DNA of 64,000 bases from Clostridia bacterium (GTDB lineage: Bacteria; Bacillota; Clostridia; UMGS1883): the NCBI GenBank assembly GCA_045661145.1, contig JAZRFC010000048.1, forward strand, positions 2,071 to 66,070, in the 5' to 3' direction. Positions 622 through 18,599 of this stretch are shown here, in pieces. The translations under genes were made by a program, and so were the position numbers. A model generated the notes under the pieces. It was not told the origin of the DNA. It saw only the letters and a list, made by a program, of their open reading frames with translations, and made no database searches. Within the stretch, counting starts at the first letter, position 1; every line of letters begins with the position of its first letter.

Positions 622-2529
622 TCAGACAATTCTGCCAAACATTTTCTCTATCTGGTAACGGGTAAGCTTTACTGTAATAGGTCTTCCGTGGGGGCAGGTT
701 GTAATGCCTTCAAGAGAAGATGCCTCAGCGTAAAGTTTTTCAAGCTCGGGAAGAGAAAGCTTCTGATGTGCTTTAATGGCACTTCGGCAGGCAATTGTGT
801 AAATTGCCTTGTCAAGCATTGCACAAATCTCTCCCGGCTCGCCTCCTGCCAGAACACCAAGTATTTCGATAAACAATCCCTCGCCCTCGTGGAAAGGGCA
901 GTCAGAGGGAAGAGAACGCAATACTACGCTGTTTGTCCCGAAATCCTCAACCTGAAACCCCATAGAGAGAAGAAGCTCGCTTTGTTCAAGAGAAAGTGTC
1001 TTTTCCTCGGGAGTAAGGTTTACGGTAATTGGCATCAGCAAAAGCTGAGTATCTGTCCTATATCCGCTTCTGCGGATTTCCTCGTAACGGATTCTTTCGT
1101 GGGCGGCGTGTTGGTCCATCAGGAAAAATTCGCCGTCGCCCTCCGCAAGTATATATGTGTCGAAAAGCTGACCGATAATTTTCACATCGCAAGTGGTATC
1201 GGGTTTCTTTTGGGCTCGTGCTTTTTCAATAGCTTCCTGAATTTCCTTAGAAAAATCAATTTTCCTCTCTTTTTCCACAGGCGGTGCAGGTTTTATATTC
1301 TGTACTCCCTCAATCTCTCTTACCGGAAGCTTGCCGTCAAATGAACTTACTTCTTCGCGAATCTGATTTTGGGTAAGAATCCTGGGTTTGGGAGGTTCCT
1401 TTGGGGGAGTGTAGGGGGTAAATGCCGACTTTATCACCTCTGCCTTGGGCTTGGTGAAGGAAATCTGCTCGGCATTTTTTATGGTAACGGGCATCTTGAA
1501 TGCTTCCTTGTTCTTAAAAACGCCCACATCTCTCGGTGCGGCAACTTCTGTAAGTGCATTTTTTACAGCCCAATAAGCCGCCTCGTACACCTCCTGCTCG
1601 GAAGCAAATTTAACCTCTGTTTTACCGGGATGTACATTCACATCCACAAGGGCGGGGTCTATTTCCACGTTCAGTATACATACGGGGAATCTTCCTACCA
1701 TAAGTTCGTTCTTGTAGGCCTCGCTTACAGCGGCAAGAAGTGTTTTGTTTACCACAAATCTGCCATTTATAAAGATTACCTGCATCAGTCTGTTCGGCCT
1801 TGAAAGGTTGTTTTTGCCCGTCAGACCGAAAACACGGATACCGTTTTTTGTGTAGTCAACCAAAGCGGTGGAATTTGCTATATCCTTGCCGTAAACCGAG
1901 TGAACAGCGTTTTTCAGGGTGTTATCTCCCGGAGAGAAAAGCACGTCCTTGCCGTCACGGATAAGACGGATTGAAACATCGGGATGGCTGAGTGCCTGCT
2001 TATTGCAGACATCTGTTACGGCAGAAGCTTCAACGGAATCCTTTTTCAAAAACTTCATTCTCGCAGGGGTGTTGAAGAAAAGGTTTTTCACAATTATTGT
2101 TGTTCCGTCTGGACAGCCTGCACCCTCGAAAAGCTTTTCCTCTCCGCCCTCAACCACTACATGGGTACCCTCGTCGGAAGTGCGTTGCTTTGTAAAAAGC
2201 TCCGTACGGCTCACTGCTGCAATGGAACAAAGTGCCTCTCCACGGAAACCGAGGGTGGCAATATGCTCTAAATCCTTGTCAGTTTTTATCTTGCTTGTGG
2301 CGTGGCGTAAAAATGCTGTACGGGCATCTTCTTTATCCATACCGCTGCCGTTGTCGGCAACTCGCATATATGTGCTGCCACCGTCTTTGATTTCAACGGT
2401 GACGGTTGTAGCACCTGCATCAATGGCATTTTCCACCAGCTCTTTTATAACGCTGGCAGGTCGTTCTACAACTTCACCTGCCGCAATTTTTTCAGCAGTA
2501 AATTTGTCAAGTACATTAATTTTTCCCAT
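622..2529 (-). CDS. mutL: DNA mismatch repair protein MutL
   Basis: 635 aa ORF. The N-terminal GHKL ATPase motifs (IAAGEVVERPASVIKELVENAIDAG, DNGSGM, GFRGEAL) and the C-terminal dimerisation region are present. Confidence 0.95.
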   Translation of the reverse strand: MGKINVLDKFTAEKIAAGEVVERPASVIKELVENAIDAGATTVTVEIKDGGSTYMRVADNGSGMDKEDARTAFLRHATSKIKTDKDLEHIATLGFRGEALCSIAAVSRTELFTKQRTSDEGTHVVVEGGEEKLFEGAGCPDGTTIIVKNLFFNTPARMKFLKKDSVEASAVTDVCNKQALSHPDVSIRLIRDGKDVLFSPGDNTLKNAVHSVYGKDIANSTALVDYTKNGIRVFGLTGKNNLSRPNRLMQVIFINGRFVVNKTLLAAVSEAYKNELMVGRFPVCILNVEIDPALVDVNVHPGKTEVKFASEQEVYEAAYWAVKNALTEVAAPRDVGVFKNKEAFKMPVTIKNAEQISFTKPKAEVIKSAFTPYTPPKEPPKPRILTQNQIREEVSSFDGKLPVREIEGVQNIKPAPPVEKERKIDFSKEIQEAIEKARAQKKPDTTCDVKIIGQLFDTYILAEGDGEFFLMDQHAAHERIRYEEIRRSGYRTDTQLLLMPITVNLTPEEKTLSLEQSELLLSMGFQVEDFGTNSVVLRSLPSDCPFHEGEGLFIEILGVLAGGEPGEICAMLDKAIYTIACRSAIKAHQKLSLPELEKLYAEASSLEGITTCPHGRPITVKLTRYQIEKMFGRIV

Positions 2530-2564
2530 GGAAAGCCTCCTTTCCCGAATGATTGGTTTAAATG

Positions 2565-5159
2565 TTATATAAGTTTCTGTAATTCGTAGAGCTTATTCAT
2601 TGCTTCTATCGGAGTAAGGGTGGTTACGTCAATAGCCCTAAGTGCTTCCACAACTTTGCTGTTTTCCATATCGGCAAAGCCTATCTGCATGGAAGCATCA
2701 TCTTTTTCAGATATATCTGCGGCAATTTTTCCGCCTGTTTCACTTGCACGGGTATTTCCCTCAACAGAAGCCAAAACTTCCTTTGCTCTTTTGATAACGC
2801 TTTCGGGAACACCTGCAAGCTTGGCAACCTCAATACCGAAGCTATCGTCTGTGCCGCCACGGACAATTCTTCTGAGGAATGTGATGTCGTCTCCCCTCTT
2901 TTTGCAGGCAGTGTTATAATTCACAACTCCCGAAAGAGTGCCCTCAAGTGCAGTAAGCTCGTGATAATGTGTGGCAAACAGTGTTTTTGCCCCTACTTTT
3001 TTTGCAATATGTTCAATAACTGCCCAGGCAATGGAAAGCCCGTCAAAGGTGCTTGTACCTCTGCCTATTTCGTCAAGAATACAAAGGCTCTTCTTCGTAG
3101 CGTTTTTAAGGATATAGCTGACCTCGTTCATTTCCAGCATAAATGTACTCTGTCCCGAAGCAAGGTCGTCGGAAGCACCGATTCTTGTAAATATCTTGTC
3201 AATAATTCCGCACTCTGCACTCTGCGCAGGAACGAAAGAGCCAATCTGTGCCATAAGGACAATGAGTGCCGTCTGGCGCATATATGTTGATTTACCTGCC
3301 ATGTTAGGGCCGGTAATAACTGACATTCTGTTATCCTTGCAGTCAAGGATTGTATCATTGGGAACGAAAAGACTGTCGGAGAGAACCTTTTCCACAACGG
3401 GATGTCTGCCCTCTTTTATTACAAGCTTGTCCGAAAGGTTAACCTCGGGCTTTTTGTAGCCGTTTTTAACAGCCGCCTCTGCAAGGGAATAGATAGTATC
3501 TGTTACGGCAATAGCGTGGGCTGTTTTTTCAATTCGTTCCATATGCTCGCAGATTCTCTCGCGGATACGTTGAAATTCCTCATACTCAAGCTGAACAAGT
3601 TTTTCGCTTGCACCGAGGACACTGCTCTCAATATCTTTAAGCTCTGCCGTGATAAACCTCTCTCCGTTGGTGAGAGTCTGCTTTCTCATATAATCATCGG
3701 GTACCTTTGAAAGCTGAGAGGTTGAAACCTCAATAAAGTAACCGAAAACCTTGTTGAATTTAACCTTTAAGGTTTTGATTCCCGTTCTTTCGCGCTCTCT
3801 CGCTTCAAGCTCTGCAATGAAATTACTTCCACCCCGGGTGATACTTCTGAGTCTATCAATCTCTTCAAGGAAACCGTCGCGGATAATGTTACCCTCGCGA
3901 AGTGTTATGGGAGGCTCAGGATTAATAGCCCTCTCGAGCAAATCTCTCAAATCTTCAAGGGTGTCAAGGTTTGCCGCCTGAACACTTAAAATAGTGCTTC
4001 TCGTTCTGCACAGAATTTTGTGCAGAAATGGAAGCCGGGCAAAGGACACACACAAGGATGCAAGGTCACGGGCATTTGCCGTTCCGACACTCAGTCGGCT
4101 CATAAGCCTTTCAATATCGTTTACACCTGTAAGTGCATCGGAAAGGTCATCACGAATGTCCATTGCGGATACCAATTCCTCAACGCCGGAAAGACGGTTG
4201 TTAACAGATGCCGCATTTACCAAGGGGCGTAAAATCCATTGCTTGAGCATTCTCGTACCCATGGATGTCTTTGTATTGTCAAGCACCCAGAAAAGACTGC
4301 CACGCTTGGATTTGTCCCGCATTGTTTCAACGAGTTCAAGATTTCTTACCGTTGCGGCATCGAGGTCCACAAACTCTTGAGAAGTGTAAATATCCATTGT
4401 GTGGATATGTGCCATTTTTGCTTTCTGTGTTTCTAAAATGTACTGAATGAGTGCAGTTGCGGAAACCCTGAGAAGTCTGTCGGAAATATCATTACTGTTT
4501 TTAAGCTGTGATGCCAAAAGCTCACGTGATTCTTTTTCCGCGTCCTCAAAATCGTATGTAAAGGTGAGAGCATCTGTACGGCTCTCGATATACTCTGTGA
4601 TTTTCTTATTCTGAAAGGAGTTTCCTCCAAGGGCAATTTCAACAGGGGAGAAGCGAGCAAGCTCGTTTATAAGCTTGTCGCAGGTAATATCGTCATAAAG
4701 GGTTGTTCCCAAAAGCTCGCCTGTTGAAACATCCACAAATGACACACCGCAATCGTTGCCGATTCGGCAAACGGATGCCATATAATTTGTCTTTCGGGAG
4801 TTAAGGAGTGAATCATCAAGAATTGTGCCGGGTGTGACAATACGGATAATGTCACGCTTTACAATTCCCTTGACCGACCTGGGGTCTTCCATCTGCTCGC
4901 AGATGGCAACCTTGTGCCCCTTGGCAACGAGTCTTGCAATATATGTGTCCGCCGCATGGAAAGGGACACCGCACATGGGAGCACGCTCCTCCTGACCGCA
5001 GTCACGGCCCGTGAGGGTGATTTCAAGGTCCCTGGAAGCCACAATTGCATCTTCAAAGAACATTTCATAAAAATCGCCCAGCCTGAACATCAGGATAGTG
5101 TCAGGGCACTTTTTCTTTATTTCCATGTATTGCTTCATCATTGGAGTAAGCTCTGCCAT
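2565..5159 (-). CDS. mutS: DNA mismatch repair protein MutS
   Basis: 864 aa ORF starting MAELTPMMKQYMEIKKK...FRLGDFYEMF. Walker A GPNMAGKST and DEIGRGTSTFDG are present. Confidence 0.96.
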   Translation of the reverse strand: MAELTPMMKQYMEIKKKCPDTILMFRLGDFYEMFFEDAIVASRDLEITLTGRDCGQEERAPMCGVPFHAADTYIARLVAKGHKVAICEQMEDPRSVKGIVKRDIIRIVTPGTILDDSLLNSRKTNYMASVCRIGNDCGVSFVDVSTGELLGTTLYDDITCDKLINELARFSPVEIALGGNSFQNKKITEYIESRTDALTFTYDFEDAEKESRELLASQLKNSNDISDRLLRVSATALIQYILETQKAKMAHIHTMDIYTSQEFVDLDAATVRNLELVETMRDKSKRGSLFWVLDNTKTSMGTRMLKQWILRPLVNAASVNNRLSGVEELVSAMDIRDDLSDALTGVNDIERLMSRLSVGTANARDLASLCVSFARLPFLHKILCRTRSTILSVQAANLDTLEDLRDLLERAINPEPPITLREGNIIRDGFLEEIDRLRSITRGGSNFIAELEARERERTGIKTLKVKFNKVFGYFIEVSTSQLSKVPDDYMRKQTLTNGERFITAELKDIESSVLGASEKLVQLEYEEFQRIRERICEHMERIEKTAHAIAVTDTIYSLAEAAVKNGYKKPEVNLSDKLVIKEGRHPVVEKVLSDSLFVPNDTILDCKDNRMSVITGPNMAGKSTYMRQTALIVLMAQIGSFVPAQSAECGIIDKIFTRIGASDDLASGQSTFMLEMNEVSYILKNATKKSLCILDEIGRGTSTFDGLSIAWAVIEHIAKKVGAKTLFATHYHELTALEGTLSGVVNYNTACKKRGDDITFLRRIVRGGTDDSFGIEVAKLAGVPESVIKRAKEVLASVEGNTRASETGGKIAADISEKDDASMQIGFADMENSKVVEALRAIDVTTLTPIEAMNKLYELQKLI

Positions 5160-8396: not shown

Positions 8397-9557
8397 TCAA
8401 ATATATGACGTTTCTACTGTAATAACCGCATAATAATTTTCGTCAATTTCCGTGATGCATTTTTCAAGCTCTGCAGAAATTTTATCCTTAGCAAAAAATC
8501 TCTCTGCAGGGACAATCAAATCAAAAATTACATTGGTGTGAGTAGGCCCCGGAACAATCCTGAGGTCGTGAACATTCCCCTCAGGACAAACTATGTCCAG
8601 CCTTTTCTGGAGCGTGGTGTAAATTTCTTTCAAAATAGGATTATTAACATCGATGGGGTCCATATGAATAAGTGCTTCGCAGCCAAGCTCTTCGGAAATC
8701 TGTCTTTCCACAAGGTCTGCCGCATCGTGGAGCAGAAAAATCTCCTTGCTTCCGTCAACCTCCATATGAAGAGATACGAAAATCTTGTTGGGACCGTAAT
8801 CGTGTACGACAAGGTCGTGAATCCCTACCGTTTCGGGATTTTGACGAACAATTTCCTCAACTCTTTTCACAAATTCATGGTCGGGAGTGCCTCCAAGCAG
8901 GGGAGAGGAGGTCTTTATGACAGCATCAAGCCCCGATTTTATAATCAGGAGGGAAACAATAACACCGGCAAAACCATCTATCTTAATATTTGTAAAGTGC
9001 ATAACAACAGAGGAAAAAAGGATTGTTGCCGTTGCAATGGCATCGCTTATAGAGTCGGTTGCAACAGCAAAAAGGACAGAAGAGTGTATCTTTTTGCCGC
9101 AATGACGATTGTAGTATGCCATATAAAGCTTAACCAATATGGAAATAACCAATACAACTGCAACATATTTATTAAAAACAAATTCTCCGGGGTGGATAAT
9201 TTTGCTTATTGATGAACGGACAAGCTCGACACCGACAAAAATAATAGCAATGGATATAAACATTCCTGCAATATACTCGATTCTGCCGTGTCCGAAAGGA
9301 TGTTCCTTATCGGCTTTCTGGCCCGAAAGGATGAATCCGAAAAGGCTTATAACAGAAGAGCCTGCATCAGTTAAGTTGTTGAATGCATCGGCGGTTATTG
9401 CAATTGAAGAACTGACAAAACCTATGAAAAGCTTTATCGCAAACAGGAACAGGTTCAAAAATATCCCTGCTCCTCCGCAGACATAACCGTATATAGTTCT
9501 GACTGTTTTTTGGTCGGCATCTTCGGGAAGAAAACGCCCCAGAAGCAGGGATATCAT
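8397..9557 (-). CDS. Cation diffusion facilitator (CDF) family metal efflux transporter
   Basis: 386 aa with six predicted TM segments, ADAFNNLTD and HPFGHGRIEY motifs and a C-terminal cytoplasmic domain. Confidence 0.88.
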   Translation of the reverse strand: MISLLLGRFLPEDADQKTVRTIYGYVCGGAGIFLNLFLFAIKLFIGFVSSSIAITADAFNNLTDAGSSVISLFGFILSGQKADKEHPFGHGRIEYIAGMFISIAIIFVGVELVRSSISKIIHPGEFVFNKYVAVVLVISILVKLYMAYYNRHCGKKIHSSVLFAVATDSISDAIATATILFSSVVMHFTNIKIDGFAGVIVSLLIIKSGLDAVIKTSSPLLGGTPDHEFVKRVEEIVRQNPETVGIHDLVVHDYGPNKIFVSLHMEVDGSKEIFLLHDAADLVERQISEELGCEALIHMDPIDVNNPILKEIYTTLQKRLDIVCPEGNVHDLRIVPGPTHTNVIFDLIVPAERFFAKDKISAELEKCITEIDENYYAVITVETSYI

Positions 9558-9575
9558 ATTATTCCTCCAAATTTT

Positions 9576-10532
9576 TTAGAATGGAAGCATCTCGTATGCT
9601 CTTAAAATAATATATATAACGTAAACGACATATATAACTACGCCGAGGAGTCCCACGGGACGGGAAACCTTGTTTCTTGCCTTGTAGATAAAGAACATAA
9701 GGGCGCTCATACCTATAAGAAGAATGGTGTCAATAACTGCACCGAAATCACAGGTAAGAGGGTGAACAATGCCACTCATACCAAGGATAAAGAGAATGTT
9801 GAATATGTTGGAGCCTACAACATTACCCAAAGCAATTTCGCTTTCACCCTTCTTTGCTGCAACAACACTTGTTACAAGTTCGGGAAGACTTGTTCCCACC
9901 GCAACAATGGTAAGACCGATTAAAAGCTCACTCATATTAAATGCTCTTGCAAAGAATGTTGCGGAATCAACGGTAAGAGTTCCGCCGGCAACGATGCCGA
10001 CAATACCGATTATGATAAAAATAATGCTCTTTAAGGGAGAAAGGGTTTTGTATTCATCAGCACTTTCCTGAGTTCGATTCTTAAGAGCAGAGCGTACAAG
10101 AATGAGAATGTAAACGATAAACAGAACGAAAAGAACAATTGCTTCTGCAACCGAAAGCGTTCTGTCCCACATCATTATAGCTAAAATTACCGCAGAAAGA
10201 ATGCTTAGGGGGAAGTCCCTTTTCATAATTACCTTATCAACAACAAATGGGCAAATAAAAGCAGAAACGCCTACAACACCCAAAAGATTAAAAATATTAG
10301 AGCCAACCACATTGGCAATGGAAAGGTCATAAGCACCTTTGATTGATGCGGAAATACTTACAGCCGCCTCGGGAAGAGAAGTTCCAATAGAAACGATTGT
10401 AAGACCAATTATAACAGCGGGAATCTTAAGCAGTTTCGCAACGGAACTGCTTCCGTCAACAAACAGGTCTGCACCCTTGATAAGAAAGGAAAAACCTAAA
10501 ACTAAAAGGAATAAATTCAATACGTAATCCAT
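9576..10532 (-). CDS. CaCA-family (YrbG-like) cation/Ca2+ antiporter, riboswitch-controlled paralog
   Basis: 318 aa with two alpha-repeats (GTSLPE...GSNIFN, twice). It is highly similar to the ORF at 10762-11715. Confidence 0.88.
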   Translation of the reverse strand: MDYVLNLFLLVLGFSFLIKGADLFVDGSSSVAKLLKIPAVIIGLTIVSIGTSLPEAAVSISASIKGAYDLSIANVVGSNIFNLLGVVGVSAFICPFVVDKVIMKRDFPLSILSAVILAIMMWDRTLSVAEAIVLFVLFIVYILILVRSALKNRTQESADEYKTLSPLKSIIFIIIGIVGIVAGGTLTVDSATFFARAFNMSELLIGLTIVAVGTSLPELVTSVVAAKKGESEIALGNVVGSNIFNILFILGMSGIVHPLTCDFGAVIDTILLIGMSALMFFIYKARNKVSRPVGLLGVVIYVVYVIYIILRAYEMLPF

Positions 10533-10591
10533 AAAAAATCACCTCATAAAAAATTTTTGTGTGGTGAGTCTTTAGTGTATCTCCTTTGCAC

Positions 10592-10634
10592 AAAAAAAGA
10601 CTTTTACCGCACAAATATAATGCAGTAAAAGTCT
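10592..10634 (-). terminator. Intrinsic terminator forming the expression platform of the Mn2+ riboswitch
   Basis: The minus-strand RNA reads AGACUUUUACUGC-loop-GCGGUAAAAGUCU followed by U7. Its 5' arm reuses the 3' strand of the riboswitch P1 helix (CUUUUAC). Confidence 0.75.
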
Positions 10635-10722
10635 TGCTGTTTAATACAAAGGCGGGCAATAGGATTGCCGTACTGACGCCATTGTACCGAATTACATAAA
10701 CTCGGTAGCTACTCCCTTTTAC
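10625..10722 (-). promoter_or_regulatory. yybP-ykoY (Mn2+) riboswitch aptamer
   Basis: The minus-strand RNA is GUAAAAGGGAGUAGCUACCGAG...UAUUAAACAGCAAGACUUUUAC. It has the 5' AAGGGAGUAGC and 3' CAGCAAGAC signatures, a closing P1 (GUAAAAG/CUUUUAC) and internal hairpins UACCGA/UCGGUA and GGCAAU/AUUGCC. Confidence 0.7.
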
Positions 10723-10729
10723 GGAGAGA

Positions 10730-10758
10730 ATTTTAACATAAAAATTACCATTTGTCAA
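10730..10758 (-). promoter_or_regulatory. Sigma-A type promoter for the riboswitch-led operon
   Basis: On the minus strand: TTGACA (10753-10758), a 17 nt spacer, then TAAAAT (10730-10735). Confidence 0.7.
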
Positions 10759-10761
10759 TAA

Positions 10762-11715
10762 TCAAAAAGGCAGTATCTCAAACGCTCTCAATACAGTATA
10801 TGCAACATATATCACATATATTACTACGCAGACAAGTCCCTCGGGACGGTTAACCTTTTTGTTTGTTAGACAAGCAAAATACATAACTACATTTACAAAG
10901 ATAAGAATTATCGTGTCAATGAGGGCTTCTGTTCCGCAATTAAGAGGATGGACAAGACCACTCATACCTAAAATAAACACAATATTGAACAGGCAGGAGC
11001 CTACCACATTGCCGAGGGCAATCTCACTTTCGCCCTTCTTAGCCGCAACAATACTTGTTACAAGCTCGGGAAGAGATGTTCCCACAGCAACTACCGTAAG
11101 GCCGATAAGCATTTCGCTCATACCAAAGGCACCTGCAAAAAATTTGGCACTGTCAACGGTAAATGTTCCTCCAATAATTATACCTGCACCGCCCAGCAGA
11201 ATGAAAACAAGGCTTTTTAAAACGGACATAGGCCTATCATCGCTTTCAGTCTGATGAGGGTTTTTAAGGGCAGACCTTACCAATATAATCATATATGCTA
11301 TAAAAACTACGAACAGAATTACTGCCTCAATACGGGAGAGCGTTCTGTCAATAAGCATAACACCTAATACAACAGTTATTCCTATACAAAGGGGGAAATC
11401 TCTCTTCATAATCATCTTATCCACAACAAAGGGGCAGATAAGAGCGGAAAACCCAACAACCATCAATAAATTAAATATGTTAGAACCTATAACATTTGCG
11501 ATAGAAAGGTCGTAGCTTCCCTGAAGTGATGATGTAATACTTACAGCCGCCTCGGGAAGAGAAGTTCCGATAGAAACTATTGTAAGACCAATTATAACCG
11601 ACGGAATTTTAAATATTTTCGCAACGGAGCTGCTTCCGTCAACGAATAGGTCAGCACCTTTTACAAGAAGAAAAAAACCGCCGATAAGTAAGACTAAATT
11701 CAGAATATAATCCAT
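10762..11715 (-). CDS. CaCA-family (YrbG-like) cation/Ca2+ antiporter, upstream paralog
   Basis: 317 aa and colinear with the 9576-10532 product over its full length (MDYxLNLxLL...GADLFVDGSSSVAK...). Confidence 0.88.
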   Translation of the reverse strand: MDYILNLVLLIGGFFLLVKGADLFVDGSSSVAKIFKIPSVIIGLTIVSIGTSLPEAAVSITSSLQGSYDLSIANVIGSNIFNLLMVVGFSALICPFVVDKMIMKRDFPLCIGITVVLGVMLIDRTLSRIEAVILFVVFIAYMIILVRSALKNPHQTESDDRPMSVLKSLVFILLGGAGIIIGGTFTVDSAKFFAGAFGMSEMLIGLTVVAVGTSLPELVTSIVAAKKGESEIALGNVVGSCLFNIVFILGMSGLVHPLNCGTEALIDTIILIFVNVVMYFACLTNKKVNRPEGLVCVVIYVIYVAYTVLRAFEILPF

Positions 11716-11763
11716 AATTGCACCTCTTTCGATTAGATATTCTATATCTGAAACGAGGAGTTG

Positions 11764-12528
11764 TCAAGAATAAAAACAAAGCTCGACAAAAATTCCGCCA
11801 AGCTCCCTTATATAATACATAGGGAGAAGATAAAGCGGAGTATCGCCCGAAACGCCGTATACTTCAACTCCGTATCTTTTGGCAACTTTCTGTGCTCTGT
11901 ACTGATGAAAATTATTTGTAATCAGGGTAACGGCATGGGGGAGCTTTTCCGTTGCTATTATTTCCTTTGAAAAAGAAAGGTTTTCCTGTGTGGACGTGGA
12001 TTTGTCCTCTATATAAAGTCTTTCTTTTTCAATACCCTTTTCAGTAAGCCAATCATACATTGCCTGTGCCTCGCTGATATGCTCGTCAGAACCTTGTCCG
12101 CCTGATAGAATACAAGGAACTTCGGGATTTTCGCTAAGGTAGGAATATGCCGCCTCCAACCTTTTAAGAAGTGACAGGCTGGGACCATTGGGATTTACCT
12201 TGCAGCCAAGGACAATTACGGTAGTTTTTTTGTCAGGGGAGTTATATGCCGCACGAATCATATTAAATGTGGCAAAGCCCGTGAATATAATGCAAAGTGC
12301 AAGAATGAGTGAAACTGCCGAAAAAACTGCTTTCCAGAGCTTGTTTTTCCACAAAGCCTTGATTGTACAATTGATTTTACCGTACAATGCCCCATAGAAA
12401 AATAAAACTGCACCCAAAAGAAGCCCTGCAATATTTCCTATGTTAAGAATCCCGAACATCGTAAAGGGAAGCAGGAAAATAAAAAACAAAAATAATGAAA
12501 TTGTGATTAGTAAATAATTCTTTTTCAT
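11764..12528 (-). CDS. DUF218 (YdcF/ElyC/SanA-like) membrane-anchored protein
   Basis: The start was moved to the internal ATG (MKKNYLLITISLF...) because the upstream part of the 297 aa ORF overlaps the XRE gene. VIVLGCKVNPNGPS and SGGQGSDE are typical of DUF218. Confidence 0.75.
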   Translation of the reverse strand: MKKNYLLITISLFLFFIFLLPFTMFGILNIGNIAGLLLGAVLFFYGALYGKINCTIKALWKNKLWKAVFSAVSLILALCIIFTGFATFNMIRAAYNSPDKKTTVIVLGCKVNPNGPSLSLLKRLEAAYSYLSENPEVPCILSGGQGSDEHISEAQAMYDWLTEKGIEKERLYIEDKSTSTQENLSFSKEIIATEKLPHAVTLITNNFHQYRAQKVAKRYGVEVYGVSGDTPLYLLPMYYIRELGGIFVELCFYS

Positions 12529-12532
12529 AACA

Positions 12533-12733
12533 TTAACTCTTGAACTCTTTTCCATTAATAAGAAAATCAATGGAAACGTTAAAATATTCAGACATTTTGA
12601 TAAGCATATCAATACTTGGTTCACGTTTACCATTTTCATAATGAGAAAGTGCTTCACGAGTAATGTTTAAATCCATAGCAACCTTTAACTGTGTCAAACG
12701 ACGTTCTTTTCTGATTTGTTTTAATCCTTTCAA
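12533..12733 (-). CDS. XRE-family helix-turn-helix transcriptional regulator (66 aa)
   Basis: TTG start preceded by AGAGGTGA. The HTH reads RRLTQLKVAMDLNITREALSHYENGKREPSIDMLIKMSEYFNVSIDFL. Confidence 0.8.
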   Translation of the reverse strand: MKGLKQIRKERRLTQLKVAMDLNITREALSHYENGKREPSIDMLIKMSEYFNVSIDFLINGKEFKS

Positions 12734-12763
12734 AAAAAATCACCTCTTGATAGAGATATTATG

Positions 12764-13231
12764 TTATAATGTGTCGCTTTTCCCCAAATTGCATTTAGAA
12801 CAAAGAGTCTGTAAATTATCTATTGTTGTTTTCCCGCCTTTTGACCAAGGTATAATGTGGTCAATATGTAATTCAAGAGAAGAGTCTTTCGCAGGAGAAG
12901 AACCGCAAGCACAGCATTTAAAGTTATCTCTCTTCAGAACCTGATACCTTAATTTGACAGATATATTTCTTGAGGAGTTGCGAGAATTCTTTTCTGTCTT
13001 TTGTTGGCACTTCGGACACTTTCTCAACCATACATCACATCCGTTTGCGAAATATTTATGCCCGCAATTAAGACATTCCATTTCAAAGAATTTTTGGTTG
13101 TAATGAGTTTCGGAAATGCCTGCATAACCAAGATTCTTTTGATTGTTTTTGTTTATGTACCCTGTATCTGTTGTTTTCATAGTTTTCCACTCCGCCCTAA
13201 TGCTTGTCCTGTGAAAATCATTTGTATTCAC
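12764..13231 (-). CDS. HNH endonuclease with an N-terminal zinc-ribbon
   Basis: 155 aa. CLNCGH...CPKCQ is followed by the HNH core CCACGS...HIDHIIPWSKGGKTTIDNLQTLCSKCN. Confidence 0.85.
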   Translation of the reverse strand: MNTNDFHRTSIRAEWKTMKTTDTGYINKNNQKNLGYAGISETHYNQKFFEMECLNCGHKYFANGCDVWLRKCPKCQQKTEKNSRNSSRNISVKLRYQVLKRDNFKCCACGSSPAKDSSLELHIDHIIPWSKGGKTTIDNLQTLCSKCNLGKSDTL

Positions 13232-13254
13232 ACTTCCTGTTTTGAAGATATGTT

Positions 13255-13893
13255 TTATTTTTTATGTAGACACTCTGCGACCTGCTCGGAAATTTGTTTC
13301 ATTCCTAACTCGGTAGGATGACCGTTTTCTTTGTCTATTTCTTTAAGATATAAATATTTGACGTTGTTTTTTTCGCAGGCTTCTATAAAGCCATTGGTAA
13401 TCTCTTCTTTCAAATCAGTGTTTATGATAACGATTATATCCTGAGCAACTTTTTTTGCTTTGTCAATCAGATAGCAAAATGCAGGCAACACGCACTTTAA
13501 TTCCTCGGCAGTCCAATCTGAATACTTAAGATTCCCGATAGGAGCATCTATCCAGGAATCGTTAGTTCCTCCGAATATAAGCATTGTGTCGATTTTGTTT
13601 TCAATAAAAACTTTTTCCAATATATATTTGTCTAGTCTGTTAATGAATGATGATTCGTCAGGAAGAGTCGGCCTTACCGTATTACAAATTGTTGAACCCG
13701 AAAAACTATCGTTAAGTATTATGTTAAGGCTGTTTTCGTTTGCGAATATATGCCACCAGGTTTTTTCTACGCCTTTGACGATTGGCTTGTCTTTCCTTTC
13801 GTCGCAATAATAAGCGTGATGTCCTTCGGGAATATATCCCGCATAAGTTGAGTAACTGTCGCCCATTATAAATATGTTTTTCTTAGTTTTCAT
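13255..13893 (-). CDS. SGNH/GDSL-family hydrolase
   Basis: 212 aa with block I GDSYS, block II SGST, block III GGTNDS and a C-terminal GHPT. Confidence 0.75.
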   Translation of the reverse strand: MKTKKNIFIMGDSYSTYAGYIPEGHHAYYCDERKDKPIVKGVEKTWWHIFANENSLNIILNDSFSGSTICNTVRPTLPDESSFINRLDKYILEKVFIENKIDTMLIFGGTNDSWIDAPIGNLKYSDWTAEELKCVLPAFCYLIDKAKKVAQDIIVIINTDLKEEITNGFIEACEKNNVKYLYLKEIDKENGHPTELGMKQISEQVAECLHKK

Positions 13894-13917
13894 TTCTCAC
13901 ACCCCATTTGAATTTAA

Positions 13918-13965
13918 TTATATTTGGCACAGCAACACACAGCACTGAACGTGGGTTGTGCTGTG
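13918..13965 (-). pseudogene. Relic duplicate of the last ~13 codons of the RumA-type methyltransferase gene
   Basis: The minus-strand reading directly after the stop at 13975-13977 is CRRHSTTHVQCCVLLCQI*. The functional C-terminus at 15325-15366 reads QTSHVECCVLLCRT*. Confidence 0.6.
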
Positions 13966-13974
13966 TCTGCGACA

Positions 13975-15126
13975 CTATTGCTTATGACAGTGTTTTCTTA
14001 TAACACATCTGTCGCAATTAGGTTCTGCTGTGCAAATTTTTGCTTGACCATCCGCACAATAGCTCCAAAGAAAATTGTCTAATTCTGCATAAAGTTTATT
14101 TGTGCTATCCTTCATGTCTGTCATAACAGCAAAAAAATCATCATCGGAAATATTTATGTTGTTAGAAATGTTTAATCTCTCGGGGGAGAGTATCCTTTTC
14201 AGGTGAACGTCAGGCTTTGCACCGTCTATGCCGACATTTCGCAAATATTCCCACGCCAATGCAGGGCCTATTGTTTTCATCTTCAAGTTGCTCTCGTTAG
14301 AGGATAACTTTTCAACAATTTTGAATGCTGGTTCGGATAAAAGAAAACCATCAACAGAACCATATAATTTTTCAATCTCGATAAGTTTTCTGATGTTTTG
14401 ATGCAAATTATTAAAATCTCTATTTGTTACTTGACTTCCACATTTGATGTTTTTTATTTGCTCTACAAAGTAATGTTCATCACATTCAAGTATTTTTTTA
14501 TAGTCATAGTCAAAGAAAATCTTTTGTATTATATCTAATTTTTCTTCTATGCGTTGCCATTTTTGCCGATTGCTTAATTTGGACAATATTAATGCTTTGC
14601 AGTGTTCGTTCAAGTCGTAAAATTTTCCTGATTTTCTTAATTTATACTCTTTCAAAGCGATTGAAGGATATAAAAGGTCTGGGTATGTTTCAAAAAACTT
14701 TTCCAAATCATATATAAAATCGTACTTATTTATTCGTGTTTTGTGTTGCAATTCATTGTGTTCTTTGTTCTTTGCTTTGATCTGCTTGCTTTTCGCAGTA
14801 GTGACGGATGCAATCAACTTTCTTCTTATTGTTCCGCATTTGTTAGTTAATGACTTATATACAATTTCAGCAATCTTATTTTTGCGAAACAACAATTCTA
14901 ACCAATATTCAGTTTCAAAACTTTCCTTTAAGGCTATTTCTAATTTGTTTATAAAATCAGCCTTGCTTTGAGCGTATTTTGCCTCGTGAAGGTTTGCACC
15001 TATTGACGAAGAACATCTTAACAATTGATTTACATACACAGAACAACCTTTAATGTTATCGCAAATGTCGGATATTTCTATTGCAAAATTTATAGTTTCT
15101 TCTCTTAATAAGTTTTTCTGGCCCAT
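13975..15126 (-). CDS. Fusion of a four-helix-bundle (23S rRNA IVS / Avd-like) domain to an HhH-type DNA glycosylase-like domain with an Fe-S cluster loop
   Basis: 383 aa single ORF. The N-terminal ~115 aa match the four-helix-bundle family (QLLRCSSSIGANLHEAKYAQSKADFINKLEIALKESFETEYWLELL). The C-terminus has GPALAWEYLRNVGIDGAKPDVHLKRIL (EndoIII-like HhH plus DxH) and CTAEPNCDRCVIRKHC. Confidence 0.65.
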   Translation of the reverse strand: MGQKNLLREETINFAIEISDICDNIKGCSVYVNQLLRCSSSIGANLHEAKYAQSKADFINKLEIALKESFETEYWLELLFRKNKIAEIVYKSLTNKCGTIRRKLIASVTTAKSKQIKAKNKEHNELQHKTRINKYDFIYDLEKFFETYPDLLYPSIALKEYKLRKSGKFYDLNEHCKALILSKLSNRQKWQRIEEKLDIIQKIFFDYDYKKILECDEHYFVEQIKNIKCGSQVTNRDFNNLHQNIRKLIEIEKLYGSVDGFLLSEPAFKIVEKLSSNESNLKMKTIGPALAWEYLRNVGIDGAKPDVHLKRILSPERLNISNNINISDDDFFAVMTDMKDSTNKLYAELDNFLWSYCADGQAKICTAEPNCDRCVIRKHCHKQ

Positions 15127-15140
15127 ACACTTTTCTCCTT

Positions 15141-15320
15141 TGTCGATATACTCGCTTTGCTCGTTCGATATATTTTGCTTCGCAAAATTCGATATAACCT
15201 CGCTTTGCTCGGTTTCGATATGATATAAATCTCGTTGCCGTAAGGCAACATATCGAGCCGTTAGGCATATCGAGTTCTAACAGAACATATCAAAAATCTC
15301 GCAAGAGATTTATATCGATG
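15141..15320. repeat. Repeat field of eight TCGATAT / ATATCGA heptamers in two opposed sets, with GNRA-loop hairpins
   Basis: TCGATAT(A/G) occurs at 15143, 15165, 15189 and 15215. (C/T)ATATCGA(G/T) occurs at 15249, 15266 and 15311, with a degenerate copy at 15286. CTCGCTTTGCTCG occurs twice. Hairpins seen: TTGCC-GTAA-GGCAA, ATCTC-GCAA-GAGAT, ATTTTGC-TTC-GCAAAAT. Confidence 0.8.
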
Positions 15321-15324
15321 AGTG

Positions 15325-16668
15325 CTATGTGCGACATAATAGCACACAGCACTCAACATGTGAAGTTTGTGGGAATTGGTCGAACACGTGGACTTCCTTT
15401 AGTATATATCCGTTTTGACATAGGTATTTTGTATCCCTTGCCATTGTGGCAGGGTCGCAGGAAACATAAACAATTCTCTCCGGCTTCATTTCTGCAATAG
15501 AGGAGAGAAGCTTTTCATCGCATCCTTTTCTGGGTGGGTCGAGAACAACTACGTCGGCTTTTTCACCGTTTCTTATAAGCTTCGGCGCAACATCCTCTGC
15601 AGGCCCACAATAAAATTCCGTGTTGTCAATGCCGTTTAATTCTGCGTTTTCCTTTGCGTTTTTCACGGCATCCTCTACTATTTCAATGCCTATAACTTTC
15701 TTCGCTTTTGGGGCAAGGAAAAGACTGATGCTTCCCGTTCCGCAGTAAAGGTCGAACACGGTTTTTTCTTTATCAAGGGCAGCAAGCTCCAACGCTTTTT
15801 CGTAAAGCAGTCTGGTGGTGCAGGGGTTTACCTGATAAAAACTTTTATAATGCACCTTATATTTAACTTCGCCAACATTATCGATAATGTACGGAACTCC
15901 ATATATTACCTTATCTCTGTCGCCGTACACATTATTTGTTCTGTCGGGGTTTATGTTTACAACAATCCCTTTCACAAAAGGAAATTTTTCCGTAATTGCA
16001 TCAACAAGGATTTCGGTAGAGGGGAGCGACTTTTTTGCAACAAGTACAAGCACCGCCTCGTCTTTACCTGTTCGCATACATATTCTGCGAAGATTTCCCG
16101 AAGCCGTTTCTTCATCATAAATATCTATGCCGTTATCGGTTGCCCATTTGCATACGGCACCGACAACCTCGTTTGTTCTTACGTCCTGCAAACTGCATGC
16201 CTCGGGGACAACAACTCTGTGGCTGTGTGGTGCGTAGAAGCCTGCACAAACCTCTCCGTCAATAACTGTTACGGGAAACTGTGCCTTATTTCTGTAATTA
16301 TAGCAAGGATTGCTTCCCGTGACAGAATCAATTTTAGCACCGGAAAATCCGCCGATTCTTACAAGGGCGTCAAGGACTTTATTCTTTTTGTACTCAAGCT
16401 GATAGCTGTATTCAACACTCTGCATACTGCAGCCGCCGCACTTCTGGAAAACCTCACAACGGGGAGTGGTTCTCAGCGGTGACGGTTCTATAACCTCCAG
16501 AAGCTTGCCGTAGCCGTAATTCTTCTTTTCCTTAACAATCAGAATTTTTGCAATATCGCCCTTGACTGCACCGGGTACAAATACCGTAAAACCGTCAGGC
16601 TTGGCAATTCCCTCGCCATCGGAGCCGAATCCAATAATCTCTGTTATATGTTCTGTATTTTTGTACAT
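15325..16668 (-). CDS. 23S rRNA (uracil-C5)-methyltransferase, RumA/RlmD/TrmA family
   Basis: 447 aa with an N-terminal TRAM domain, Fe-S cysteines (CEVFQKCGGC), a SAM-binding DLYCGTGS motif and a C-terminal DPPRKG...SCDPATMARD. Confidence 0.9.
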   Translation of the reverse strand: MYKNTEHITEIIGFGSDGEGIAKPDGFTVFVPGAVKGDIAKILIVKEKKNYGYGKLLEVIEPSPLRTTPRCEVFQKCGGCSMQSVEYSYQLEYKKNKVLDALVRIGGFSGAKIDSVTGSNPCYNYRNKAQFPVTVIDGEVCAGFYAPHSHRVVVPEACSLQDVRTNEVVGAVCKWATDNGIDIYDEETASGNLRRICMRTGKDEAVLVLVAKKSLPSTEILVDAITEKFPFVKGIVVNINPDRTNNVYGDRDKVIYGVPYIIDNVGEVKYKVHYKSFYQVNPCTTRLLYEKALELAALDKEKTVFDLYCGTGSISLFLAPKAKKVIGIEIVEDAVKNAKENAELNGIDNTEFYCGPAEDVAPKLIRNGEKADVVVLDPPRKGCDEKLLSSIAEMKPERIVYVSCDPATMARDTKYLCQNGYILKEVHVFDQFPQTSHVECCVLLCRT

Positions 16669-18599
16669 TTGTCCTGCTTCCTTTCGGGAGTAAATATTCT
16701 GTATGAAAGGGGATGAATTTCCATAGAAAGATTATGACCGTCAGTTATTTTTTCTCCGCTTAATGTGTCGGAAAGAGAAGTAATTCTCCAGGGAGATAAA
16801 TTAAGGTCTATATATTGATTATCGTTGCCTGCATTAACGATAATGATAGTCTCTTCCCCATTTTGTTTGTTGCCGAAAGCATCCTTGCCGTTTTCAAAGT
16901 TTCGCATAAAGGCAAAGACTCCGCCTTCTGCAAAGATAGTTGAACATAGACCCGTACGGAGAGAGGGGGCTTCGTTTCTTAATTTAGTGAAAAGCTTTAA
17001 CTGTCTCATTATCTCGCTTTCGCCATGCTCCCAATCCATGGGTGCACGGTTAAAGGGGTCTGCAAATCCCGTCATTTCCATTTCGTCCCCGTAGTATACG
17101 GTAGGGGCACCGGGGAGAGTCATCTGCAGACATATTGCAAGGACCATTCGCCTTTTTGCAAGGTTCAGCTTATCCTCAGATATAACATAGTCGTGTTGCT
17201 CCTGCCTTGAAAGTGTGCGGAAATCAGGAGTGTCTGCAAGCACCGTAAGTGCTCTCGGTACATCATGAGAGGAAAGAAGATTCATAGCAGTGTAAAGAGC
17301 TTCTTTCGGGTAATTCTCCAGAAGAGAATGTATCTTTCCCGAAAACGCTTTTGCATCTCCCGTTGTAAGATAGGAAAGTACCCCGTCGCGAAAAACATAA
17401 TTCATCACGCTGTCCAGCTCATCACCCATCAAAAAGTGACGGTTTTCCCCGTAGCTTACCTTATTGGAAGCATCTTCCCATACCTCACCAATCAGAAGTG
17501 AATCGGGATTTTCCTCTTTAAGAGATTTTCTGAGAATTTTTATAAATTTGTCAGGAAGCTCGTCTGCTACATCAAGACGGAAGCCTGATGCCCCGCGGCG
17601 AAGCCATTTTTTTATAACGCTGTCTTTTCCCTCTGCAATATATTCTGTAAAATTCTTATCCAATTCATTAACATTGGGAAGTGTATCGAACCCCCACCAG
17701 GATTCATATTTGTCGGGGTAAGAGGTAAAGTTATACCAACTGTAAAAAGGAGATTTCTTGCTTTGATATGCGCCAATACTGTCGTAGTGACCGTATTTGT
17801 TGAAATATCTGCTGTCGGCACCCGTATGGCTGAAAACCCCGTCAAGGATAATACGGATTCCCTGTCTTTTTGCTTCTTTGGAAAGCTCCTCAAAATCCTT
17901 TACACTGCCCAAAAGCTCATCAGGGGTTTCATAATCTCCCGTGTCGTATCGGTGGTTAGAAAAAGCCTTGGAAATGGGGTTTAAATATATTGCAGTGATC
18001 CCCAAATCCTTAAGGTAGGGAAGCTTCTTTTTTATACCGTCAAAATTGCCACCAAAAAAGTCGTTGGAAAGATACTCTCCTCCGAATTGGTCGGGACGGT
18101 AGAAAGGCTCGTCATTCCATTTCCTTTCTATTCCATGGAAAGGAGTTTCTTTCCCTCTCATAAACCTGTCGGGGAAAATCTGGTACACAACTGCATTTTT
18201 CATCCAATCAGGTGTTTTAAAGTTCTTGTTGTAAACCGTTATCTGATACATACTGACAGGCACCGAAATACATTCTTCACCCAAACCGCCCGTATGCGCG
18301 GAATTGTTCCCGTAATAGAGTATACATCCGTCAGCACATACCTTAAAATAGTAAAACAAAAGTCTTCCCTCAGAGGGTGTTTCTATTTTGCACTCATAGA
18401 TTTTGTTCCCGTTTGCTTCGAAAGAAAACGCCATCTCCGTTTCGACATTATCGATAATGCAACAAACTTTCTCGGGAACGGAAAAGGACTCCACACAAAG
18501 TCTTAATATAATCTCTGTATCAGTAGGGCAGGCACCAAAAGGGGTGCGGTAAAAAAGCTCGCCCGAATTATGTTCTATACGCAATGTATACCACCTCAA
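16644..18599 (-). CDS. GH13 alpha-glycosidase (neopullulanase / cyclomaltodextrinase-like)
   Basis: 651 aa. GH13 conserved regions DGVFSHTG, GFRLDVADE, EVWED and LLSSHDVPR are present, plus an N-terminal beta-sandwich domain. Confidence 0.88.
   Translation of the reverse strand: MRWYTLRIEHNSGELFYRTPFGACPTDTEIILRLCVESFSVPEKVCCIIDNVETEMAFSFEANGNKIYECKIETPSEGRLLFYYFKVCADGCILYYGNNSAHTGGLGEECISVPVSMYQITVYNKNFKTPDWMKNAVVYQIFPDRFMRGKETPFHGIERKWNDEPFYRPDQFGGEYLSNDFFGGNFDGIKKKLPYLKDLGITAIYLNPISKAFSNHRYDTGDYETPDELLGSVKDFEELSKEAKRQGIRIILDGVFSHTGADSRYFNKYGHYDSIGAYQSKKSPFYSWYNFTSYPDKYESWWGFDTLPNVNELDKNFTEYIAEGKDSVIKKWLRRGASGFRLDVADELPDKFIKILRKSLKEENPDSLLIGEVWEDASNKVSYGENRHFLMGDELDSVMNYVFRDGVLSYLTTGDAKAFSGKIHSLLENYPKEALYTAMNLLSSHDVPRALTVLADTPDFRTLSRQEQHDYVISEDKLNLAKRRMVLAICLQMTLPGAPTVYYGDEMEMTGFADPFNRAPMDWEHGESEIMRQLKLFTKLRNEAPSLRTGLCSTIFAEGGVFAFMRNFENGKDAFGNKQNGEETIIIVNAGNDNQYIDLNLSPWRITSLSDTLSGEKITDGHNLSMEIHPLSYRIFTPERKQDKCTKIQNI

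Follow-up and report, generated by a model that had tools for sequence, protein, structure and literature searches.

Why should the last codons of a housekeeping gene be present twice on one strand, once in place and once again beyond a single further gene? This question is raised by the 64,000-nt window analysed here (the whole stretch, positions 2,071 to 66,070 of contig JAZRFC010000048.1, from a 1.52-Mb, 92% complete Clostridia bacterium assembly), at the 3' end of rlmD, also called rumA, which encodes a 23S rRNA (uracil-C5)-methyltransferase. Our analysis indicates that window positions 13954-15360 are probably a 1,407-bp cassette without an integrase, resembling a cis-mobilizable element (CIME), which occupies the attachment site in rumA/rlmD that large serine integrases are known to use and belongs to a series of layers stacked there by accretion.

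The rlmD gene is intact (15325-16668, on the minus strand like all genes of the region; 447 aa; TIGR00479 rumA, E = 4e-135, with PF05958 and TRAM), and orthologues are present in 39 of the 39 genomes of the genus. Its product ends in ...FPQTSHVECCVLLCRT-stop, and the functional gene end HVECCVLLCRT-stop occupies 15325-15360 on the minus strand (His codon at 15358-15360, stop codon at 15325-15327). A second, diverged end, HVQCCVLLCQI-stop, lies on the same strand at 13918-13953 with its stop at the equivalent position; the spacer after the intervening 383-aa gene translates as ...RKHCHKQ-stop followed by CRRHSTTHVQCCVLLCQI-stop, and this relic follows the TAG stop directly and in the same frame. 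A repeat search aligns 13919-13953 with 15326-15360 over 35 nt at 71% identity, the two copies being spaced 1,407 bp apart. By nucleotide sequence alone the likeness is not significant, with a longest exact run of 11 nt and a blastn-short E of 10. In a six-frame translation of the whole 1.52-Mb genome, the relic is the top non-self match to the 13-residue gene end at 9/13 residues, and the runners-up are four matches of 7/13.

The first-pass annotation of this DNA had reported such a second, diverged rlmD end behind the stop of the cargo gene, and translation, the 71% repeat and relatives with the same layout all bear it out. Its core likeness also stands, although not at the 9 of 11 residues that it counted: the actual figure is 8/11 (HVECCVLLCRT vs. 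HVQCCVLLCQI), or 9/13 with the two preceding residues. The imperfect direct repeats that it had placed at both junctions are present one base away from where it put them, at 13959-13982 and 15322-15343, and they are a likeness between the distal half of a hairpin at the gene's tail and a conserved block at the cassette's right end, both described below. A candidate short junction repeat, CATGTTGAG vs. CACGTTCAG, matches at 7/9 positions in the window and at 8/9 in three other genomes (G008, G080 and G084).

To place the duplication in context, we compared rlmD and the DNA downstream of it in all 38 other genomes of the genus and several of the sister family, and ran pattern scans at the level of the order (87 genomes) and the class (401 genomes) and over the viral contigs of IMG/VR. 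The same layout—rlmD, replacement tail, cargo, right end, relic, cut at the same codons—was found in at least eight other genomes from three families. We take the relic layout as settled because it recurs in G014 (relic HVECVVRLCR-stop), G008 (HVETVVLLSKLKSS-stop), G084 (HVETVALLARTL-stop), G080 (two stacked relics), G077, G037 from the sister family, G425 from a third family, and the type-B case G015, whose repeat word is a different one (GTGAAGTT). The duplicated portion is always just the last ~12-17 codons, always from the same boundary, while the cargo varies and includes a small membrane open reading frame (ORF), two unrelated HNH genes, an acyltransferase, and a metallo-beta-lactamase (MBL)-fold protein accompanied by others.

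A filled and an empty site can be compared directly in G080 and G077. The two rlmD genes are homologous as far as the HVE codons; there, precisely at the one for His, G080 has a 1,019-bp insert made up of tail hairpin, a leader of repeated words that we call the ladder, four-helix-bundle gene, one ORF and right end. Beyond this insert, the G080 relic and downstream genes align with the functional rlmD end and downstream genes of G077 at 83% nucleotide identity, compared with only 73.5% for rlmD itself. We also observed that the two genomes share an island there (L082, ~2480-5030, in G080; L098, ~1340-3960, in G077; oriented coordinates; again 83% vs. 73.5% for rlmD). A membrane protein and a 401-aa MBL-fold protein accompany a 246-aa ORF in this island, whose limits are an ECCVLL-type tail and a right end; ladder and four-helix-bundle gene are both missing from it.

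The cassette ends have also spread horizontally. Ladders are 86-92% identical in nucleotide sequence between genomes whose rlmD genes are 64-74% identical; the window and G425, from different families, agree at 85.8% over 579 nt and at 102/115 residues of the four-helix-bundle domain; and G006 and G037 have exactly the same 30-nt tail, CATGTGGAGTGCTGTGTGCTACTATGTCGA, on rlmD bodies that share 60.6% of nucleotides. On the rlmD tree, full elements fall into five separate clades, with sister genomes carrying stubs, other word types or nothing. Stubs such as those of G020 and G076, which retain the tail hairpin and the first ladder hairpin, look like deletion derivatives, and G006, the closest relative of the window genome (92% aa identity), is a secondary deletion rather than an empty site, having kept the ECCVLLCRT-stop tail and lost everything down to an antiporter leader. 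The earlier proposal that an element had entered the 3' end of a conserved gene and supplied a replacement end is thus upheld, both by the tail that travels with the cassette (G037/G006) and by the G080/G077 pair.

The empty site that had been predicted for the window itself, with the relic tail as gene end followed directly by the SGNH hydrolase gene, was found in no collection searched: as a functional gene end, the relic sequence returned only the relic of G080 among GTDB species genomes, and only five unrelated tandem-repeat matches among JGI metagenome contigs. The window relic closely resembles the first relic of G080 (HVECCVLLCHK-stop). Because the ECCVLLC type of tail travels with cassettes (in G037, G425 and relic 1 of G080), the window relic is probably itself the tail left by an earlier cassette of this type rather than a pristine gene end, which would make the site a layered one.

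At the left end of the cassette, the last ~10 codons of rlmD, from the Glu codon on, are the cassette-borne replacement tail. They fold into a tail hairpin (15319-15355, minus strand; inverted repeat I15, 14-nt arms, 93% complementary; dG -23.9 kcal/mol) whose 5' arm is formed by the ECCV codons and whose 3' arm is formed by RT-stop and the bases just past the stop, and folding gives an equivalent hairpin of different sequence at ~18/22 rlmD ends of relatives. At the other end lies a conserved right end, AGTGTCGCAGACACAGCACAACC, of 23-26 nt (13954-13976, minus strand), which we read as the P arm of an attR-type junction. This right end is near-identical in G014, G080, G084, G037 and G425 and looser in G008 and G077, and the relic tails that follow it in type-A cases vary despite its conservation. 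Its pattern is found once per genome, always ~1 to 2.6 kb downstream of an rlmD-type tail, in 5/87 genomes of the order and 2/401 of the class, with zero matches in a reversed control; the class-wide scan added one case, G425. The last 15 nt of the type-A right end mimic the rlmD codons Q-T-S-H-V at 13/15 positions, and the third base of the Val codon varies freely at the junctions (GTT, GTG, GTC, GTA).

The left junction is thus rlmD body plus foreign tail, and the right junction P-arm-like block plus displaced tail. Joined to each other, the ends would give a reconstructed cassette junction of right end, CAYGTNGAG and tail, and a circular or tandem form would read ...CGCAGACAC[AG/CA]CACAACC-CAYGTN-GAGTGCTGTGTGCT.... 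Because G037 and G077 carry the two ends with neither ladder nor four-helix-bundle gene, the insertion system is defined by its ends rather than by this cargo. A profile search detected no recombinase domain in 13954-15360, and integration and transfer genes are absent from the segment, in keeping with the earlier description of one gene plus a repeat field that is either decayed or moved in trans.

The sole gene of the cassette (13975-15126, minus strand; 383 aa) is a fusion of a four-helix bundle and a glycosylase-like domain. The N-terminal domain belongs to the 23S_rRNA_IVP family (PF05635, E = 5.5e-19, 68.8 bits vs. a curated cut-off of 33.8; TIGR02436, E = 1.9e-21, 76.3 bits vs. 24) and matches PDB 2rld (E = 2e-21). 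The C-terminal domain may be of the EndoIII/OGG-like helix-hairpin-helix kind, as suggested by a Cys4 motif and weak matches: PF03352, which scores 18 bits and so misses its cut-off of 25; PDB 9o02, an 8-oxoguanine glycosylase, at E = 0.41; and an OGG match in PADLOC at E = 1e-6 over residues 282-314. The C-terminus reads C-X5-C-X2-C-X5-C, to be set beside the iron-sulfur Cys4 loop of EndoIII and MutY, C-X6-C-X2-C-X5-C. The fusion is genuine: full-length homologues form at least eight clusters, and G085 has a homologue at 80% identity. As a side observation, in 3/3 unrelated contigs looked up (L118, L119, L120), fusion homologues lie directly after a gene of the RumA family; two of the three come with a fourth ladder word type (CATGAAT / ATTCATG), and in one the gene ahead is a 389-aa paralogue that lacks TRAM, with surroundings of a quite different kind.

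Two relatives link this site to large serine integrases. In G003 (91% aa identity), rlmD continues past HVE into a 93-aa foreign extension, ...LKPDD...ATYEEIK... (L034, contig C34), and the other flank, on a second contig (L115, C42), carries an ORF ending ...FIERVDIYPEEQADGRILKSIKFNFPIFF...WDNEAHD/ESAILLCKEK-stop, with the DUF218 gene directly after it. Annotated recombinases and integrases have C-termini that match this ORF fragment, and among them is a complete 562-aa large serine recombinase ending in ...WDNESTDETVVCLQKEKG-stop. The empty site matching G003 is found in G024, where rlmD ends in ...HVESAILLCKEK-stop and DUF218 follows directly. A recombinase candidate on another G003 contig (C29) was rejected as an unrelated small gene.

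In G425 (L121, contig C53), the homologous integrase C-terminus reads ...SLDNETT/LECCVLLCRT-stop, with the exact tail of the window, and is followed by a window-type hairpin, ladder, four-helix-bundle gene, cargo ORF and right end, and then by an older relic that has a stub of a ladder, so that three layers lie at one site. Because the integrase ORF reads into the tail and then into hairpin, ladder and four-helix-bundle gene, an integrase-bearing element has landed at the Val/Glu boundary directly upstream of a window-like cassette. The right end of the type-B cassette in G015 agrees with the G425 integrase gene at 19/26 nt of the latter's 3' end, and the integrase end of G003 mimics the rlmD sequence upstream of the crossover at 17/26. 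Integrase-bearing elements at this same codon boundary, in both G003 and G425, further strengthen the first-pass idea of an element integrated in the 3' end of a conserved gene.

Published elements behave comparably: in elements that enter rumA by means of a single serine integrase, attR falls within the integrase gene, which swaps its 3' part with that of rumA (PMC4701971); CTn5 carries a rumA C-terminus (PMC4320837); and CIMEs have lost the integrase, keep attL and attR, and stack with newcomers by tandem accretion (PMC5704250). We infer that the insertion in the window was the work of a serine integrase, and that the cassette may still be mobilisable. Under this model, site-specific recombination would have inserted the cassette into rlmD at the Val/Glu codon boundary of a conserved ...HVE... 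motif; the left end would supply the replacement C-terminus ECCVLLCRT-stop and leave rlmD intact, the right end would mimic rlmD just upstream of the crossover like the P arm of attP, and the previous gene end would be pushed downstream to survive as a relic. The cassette would be non-autonomous, moving only with a cognate recombinase in trans, such as that of an integrase-bearing element landing beside it; because the window assembly holds no homologue of the rumA-type integrase C-terminus, an incoming element would be needed. Repeated landings would stack layers with the newest next to rlmD, and deletions would erode the older ones.

Several observations weigh against this reading. Neither the order-level scan (87 genomes) nor the class-level one (401 genomes) nor that of IMG/VR turned up an integrase whose attP matches the type-A right end, and the 92% complete window assembly has only distant serine recombinases, two in number and 21-23% identical, whose 3' ends are unlike the right end. 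Cassettes with the same right end do not all have the same left arm (P'), which counts as an objection because a single serine integrase with quasi-symmetric half-sites predicts otherwise. Finally, G014 has the cassette, relic and SGNH gene of the window at roughly the identity seen for rlmD, and because all three are common to both genomes, the window insertion may be old and inherited rather than recent.

The most serious alternatives start from the ladder, the "repeat field" of the first-pass annotation, a 176-nt leader (15142-15317, minus strand, as read from the sequence) within the non-coding stretch between rlmD and the cargo gene (15127-15324, minus strand). A CAT lies between the tail hairpin and the ladder, which begins with four units, each made of the word TCGATAT(G) and then a short GC-rich hairpin capped by a stable tetraloop; mid-ladder, GAGATTTATATC is the complement of the first word and its extension; and the second half carries the inverted word ATATCGA four times, interleaved with hairpins, before the ribosome-binding site and the 383-aa gene. 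The predicted RNA fold consists of nested word/anti-word helices with the small hairpins as branches (z = -5.7), and a consensus fold of 18 distinct copies has 50 pairs, 18 of them with compensatory changes, while an Rfam scan of 9000-17000 at E up to 1 found no family matching the ladder. Type-A ladders (CGATATAAATCTC-N4-GAGATTT..., ~175 nt) are a dispersed repeat (loci L052-L081 and L086-L089) in 30/87 genomes of the order, with at most 8 copies per genome and zero in a reversed control; most dispersed copies have no four-helix-bundle gene, and neither the ladder motif nor the right end was found in IMG/VR viral contigs. There are four word types (TCGATAT, GTGAAGTT, GCTAAAT and CATGAAT), three of which occur exactly at the ends of RumA-family genes. 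In such rlmD-end units the first hairpin is built from the last codons of the gene, and in many genomes the rlmD stop lies inside the first ladder word (...SSI-stop = TCG ATA TAA). Separately, the window genome has a second four-helix-bundle gene, 56% identical (L002, contig C98, ~1740-1960 minus strand), with a ladder of the same design built on the word GCTAAAT / ATTTAGC, which lies after a terminator in an ordinary intergenic region and not at rlmD.

A hairpin of unrelated sequence directly precedes every one of the ~30 type-A ladder copies examined, be it a tRNA terminator, a -10 box with a hairpin, or the rlmD tail. Ladder and four-helix-bundle gene could be imagined as a structure-directed element that settles immediately behind stable hairpins, whether terminators, tRNA ends or the rlmD tail. 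Such a hairpin would become the opening helix when the element itself folds, as RNA or single-stranded DNA, and the rlmD cassettes would be its vehicle between families. We regard this as a doubtful proposition, and one that, if true, would tie together 23S rRNA intervening sequences, dispersed word-array repeats and the PF05635 family. Somewhat harder to uphold, and in our view rather unlikely, is the related proposal that this unit alone is what moved into the window, recognising structure and inserting behind hairpins, with an anchoring hairpin made or taken over from the last rlmD codons and the relic as a by-product. The hairpin before every copy, the occurrence of three of the four word types right at RumA-family gene ends and the dispersal of the ladder in up to 8 copies per genome speak for it. 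Yet the same tail and right end occur without ladder or four-helix-bundle gene in G037 and G077, the right end is restricted to rlmD junctions and never found at other ladder copies, the non-rlmD copies inspected have no flanking duplication, and no enzyme for such a mechanism is evident or known.

Downstream of the relic, the window carries an SGNH hydrolase gene (13255-13893) and an HNH endonuclease gene (12764-13231), both on the minus strand. The HNH gene matches the one inside the G084 cassette, which sits between the four-helix-bundle gene and the right end, at 77% (tblastn; 79.5% in nucleotides), and its stop runs straight into the leader of a helix-turn-helix (HTH) gene with no right end remaining. 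Because of this match, and because the close relatives G006, G077 and G024 have neither gene, we read the pair (12764-13893) as probably the remains of an older cassette layer that has lost its right end.

The same genes raise the prospect of HNH homing, in which the enzyme would cut element-free rlmD at the HVE codons and repair would copy the cassette in. HNH genes do lie inside the G084 and G008 cassettes, abutting the right end, and the 77%-identical gene of the window is two genes downstream. However, the cassettes of the window, G014, G080, G037 and G425 have no HNH gene, those of G008 and G084 are unrelated (no tblastn match between them), and a displaced, duplicated gene end with stacked layers is not what homing leaves, which together make this account very improbable.

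Still less credible is the view that nothing was inserted, the second copy being a conserved terminator or regulatory hairpin, or the remnant of a decayed tandem RumA paralogue. The weak nucleotide match on its own would suit it, as would the 9-bp hairpin that relic and right end can form in the window. Across the right junctions inspected, however, that pairing is not kept; a conserved right-end/relic hairpin was dropped as a candidate after examination of seven cases by eye, the pairing being good in the window, G008 and G014 and lost elsewhere. A promoter and terminator scan gave no signal above shuffled background, and the duplication always comprises the last ~12-17 codons from one boundary. 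The view is contradicted outright by the G080/G077 comparison, in which relic and downstream genes of one genome are homologous to the functional rlmD end and downstream genes of the other.

Retrohoming by a diversity-generating retroelement, with the gene end as variable repeat, the downstream copy as template repeat and the four-helix-bundle protein (of a family related to Avd) as accessory, has next to no chance of being right and was rejected: gene end, hairpin, Avd-like gene and second copy look superficially the part, but a reverse transcriptase (RVT_1) is absent from the whole genome, the differences between the copies include C/T and G/C changes rather than being confined to adenines, and the copies are only ~36 nt long. 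An integron was likewise rejected, there being no attC cores and no IntI on contig C48; the five tyrosine recombinases of the assembly all lie on contigs C65, C75 and C80.

The other genes around the cassette likewise lie on the minus strand. A glycoside hydrolase gene (16644-18599) lies on the rlmD side, and on the other side the small HTH protein (12533-12733) and the DUF218 protein (11764-12657) form a flank (11764-12733) common to close relatives, with G077 having its island, then HTH, then DUF218. Two Na/Ca-exchanger paralogues follow DUF218 in minus-strand gene order. We also observed a conserved leader (GGGGAGTAGC...ACAACGGCGTCAGTACGG...) ahead of the Na/Ca-exchanger genes of relatives, present in the window at 10577-10709 (minus strand) and also, just downstream of rlmD, at L033, L043, L046 and L040; it may be a metal-sensing, riboswitch-like element. 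Between the exchanger paralogues of the window, Rfam gives weak, sub-threshold matches (SSRC10, E = 2.5e-4).

Taken together, these results place kilobase-sized, integrase-less cassettes at what is a textbook site for large conjugative elements. The ends of these cassettes are conserved and their cargo is interchangeable; nucleases, glycosylases and further genes of a defence-like kind are frequent in it, and the cassettes are common to at least three families of uncultured Clostridia. If they are mobilised in trans by a visiting integrase, the site would amount to an integron that runs on a serine recombinase, and small accessory genes would spread without machinery of their own. A four-helix-bundle gene of the rRNA intervening-sequence type and its structured leader are thereby placed in a datable, comparable setting of filled and empty sites and layered scars. 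As regards annotation, many of these genomes have an rlmD whose last codons are foreign and whose stop codon falls within the repeat leader.

Among known systems, the closest parallel is with the integrative and conjugative or mobilizable elements (ICEs and IMEs) that use a single large serine integrase to enter rumA/rlmD (Tn1549/CTn5-type elements and streptococcal ICE_..._rumA; PMC4701971, PMC4320837). They share the target gene, the insertion near its 3' end, the reciprocal exchange of 3' parts and the supply of a new C-terminus by the element, and in G003 and G425 the integrase itself reads into an rlmD-type tail at the Val/Glu boundary. The window cassette differs in being 1.4 kb long with no integrase, transfer or mobilisation genes, and in having a 23-26-nt block rather than an integrase gene at its right end; a large serine integrase at the element's end is a feature of the relatives G003 and G425 only. 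The tail of rumA/rlmD is thus already known as a landing site of mobile DNA in Firmicutes, seen here in miniature.

CIMEs, as described for the ICESt1/ICESt3 family and others (PMC5704250), resemble the cassette in their attL/attR-like junctions without integration or transfer genes and in stacking at one site, as with the two relics of G080 or the integrase element, cassette and older relic of G425. They are usually decay products of several kb beside a related ICE, whereas the rlmD cassettes of three families have in common a minimal chassis, conserved at its ends and fitted with different cargo, which looks more like a pool of cassettes than one-off decay. The tandem arrangement in G425 is suggestive, and only that, of a cassette being excised or transferred together with the adjoining element.

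The ORF-bearing intervening sequences of 23S rRNA genes in Leptospira and Coxiella burnetii (S23p; PMC4990558) have a protein of the same family, PF05635, as the N-terminal domain of the cargo, and a long-range base-paired structure built from short repeated words, here predicted. The window unit, in contrast, lies outside rRNA, its words and hairpins are all upstream of the gene instead of enclosing it, and its protein is fused to a glycosylase-like domain. Integron cassettes, finally, are likewise small, mostly single-gene units with no recombinase of their own that stack at a single site, the newest next to the attachment point; unlike them, the rlmD cassettes come with no IntI tyrosine recombinase and no attC cores (RYYYAAC/GTTRRRY) at their junctions, and their site lies inside the coding end of a housekeeping gene.

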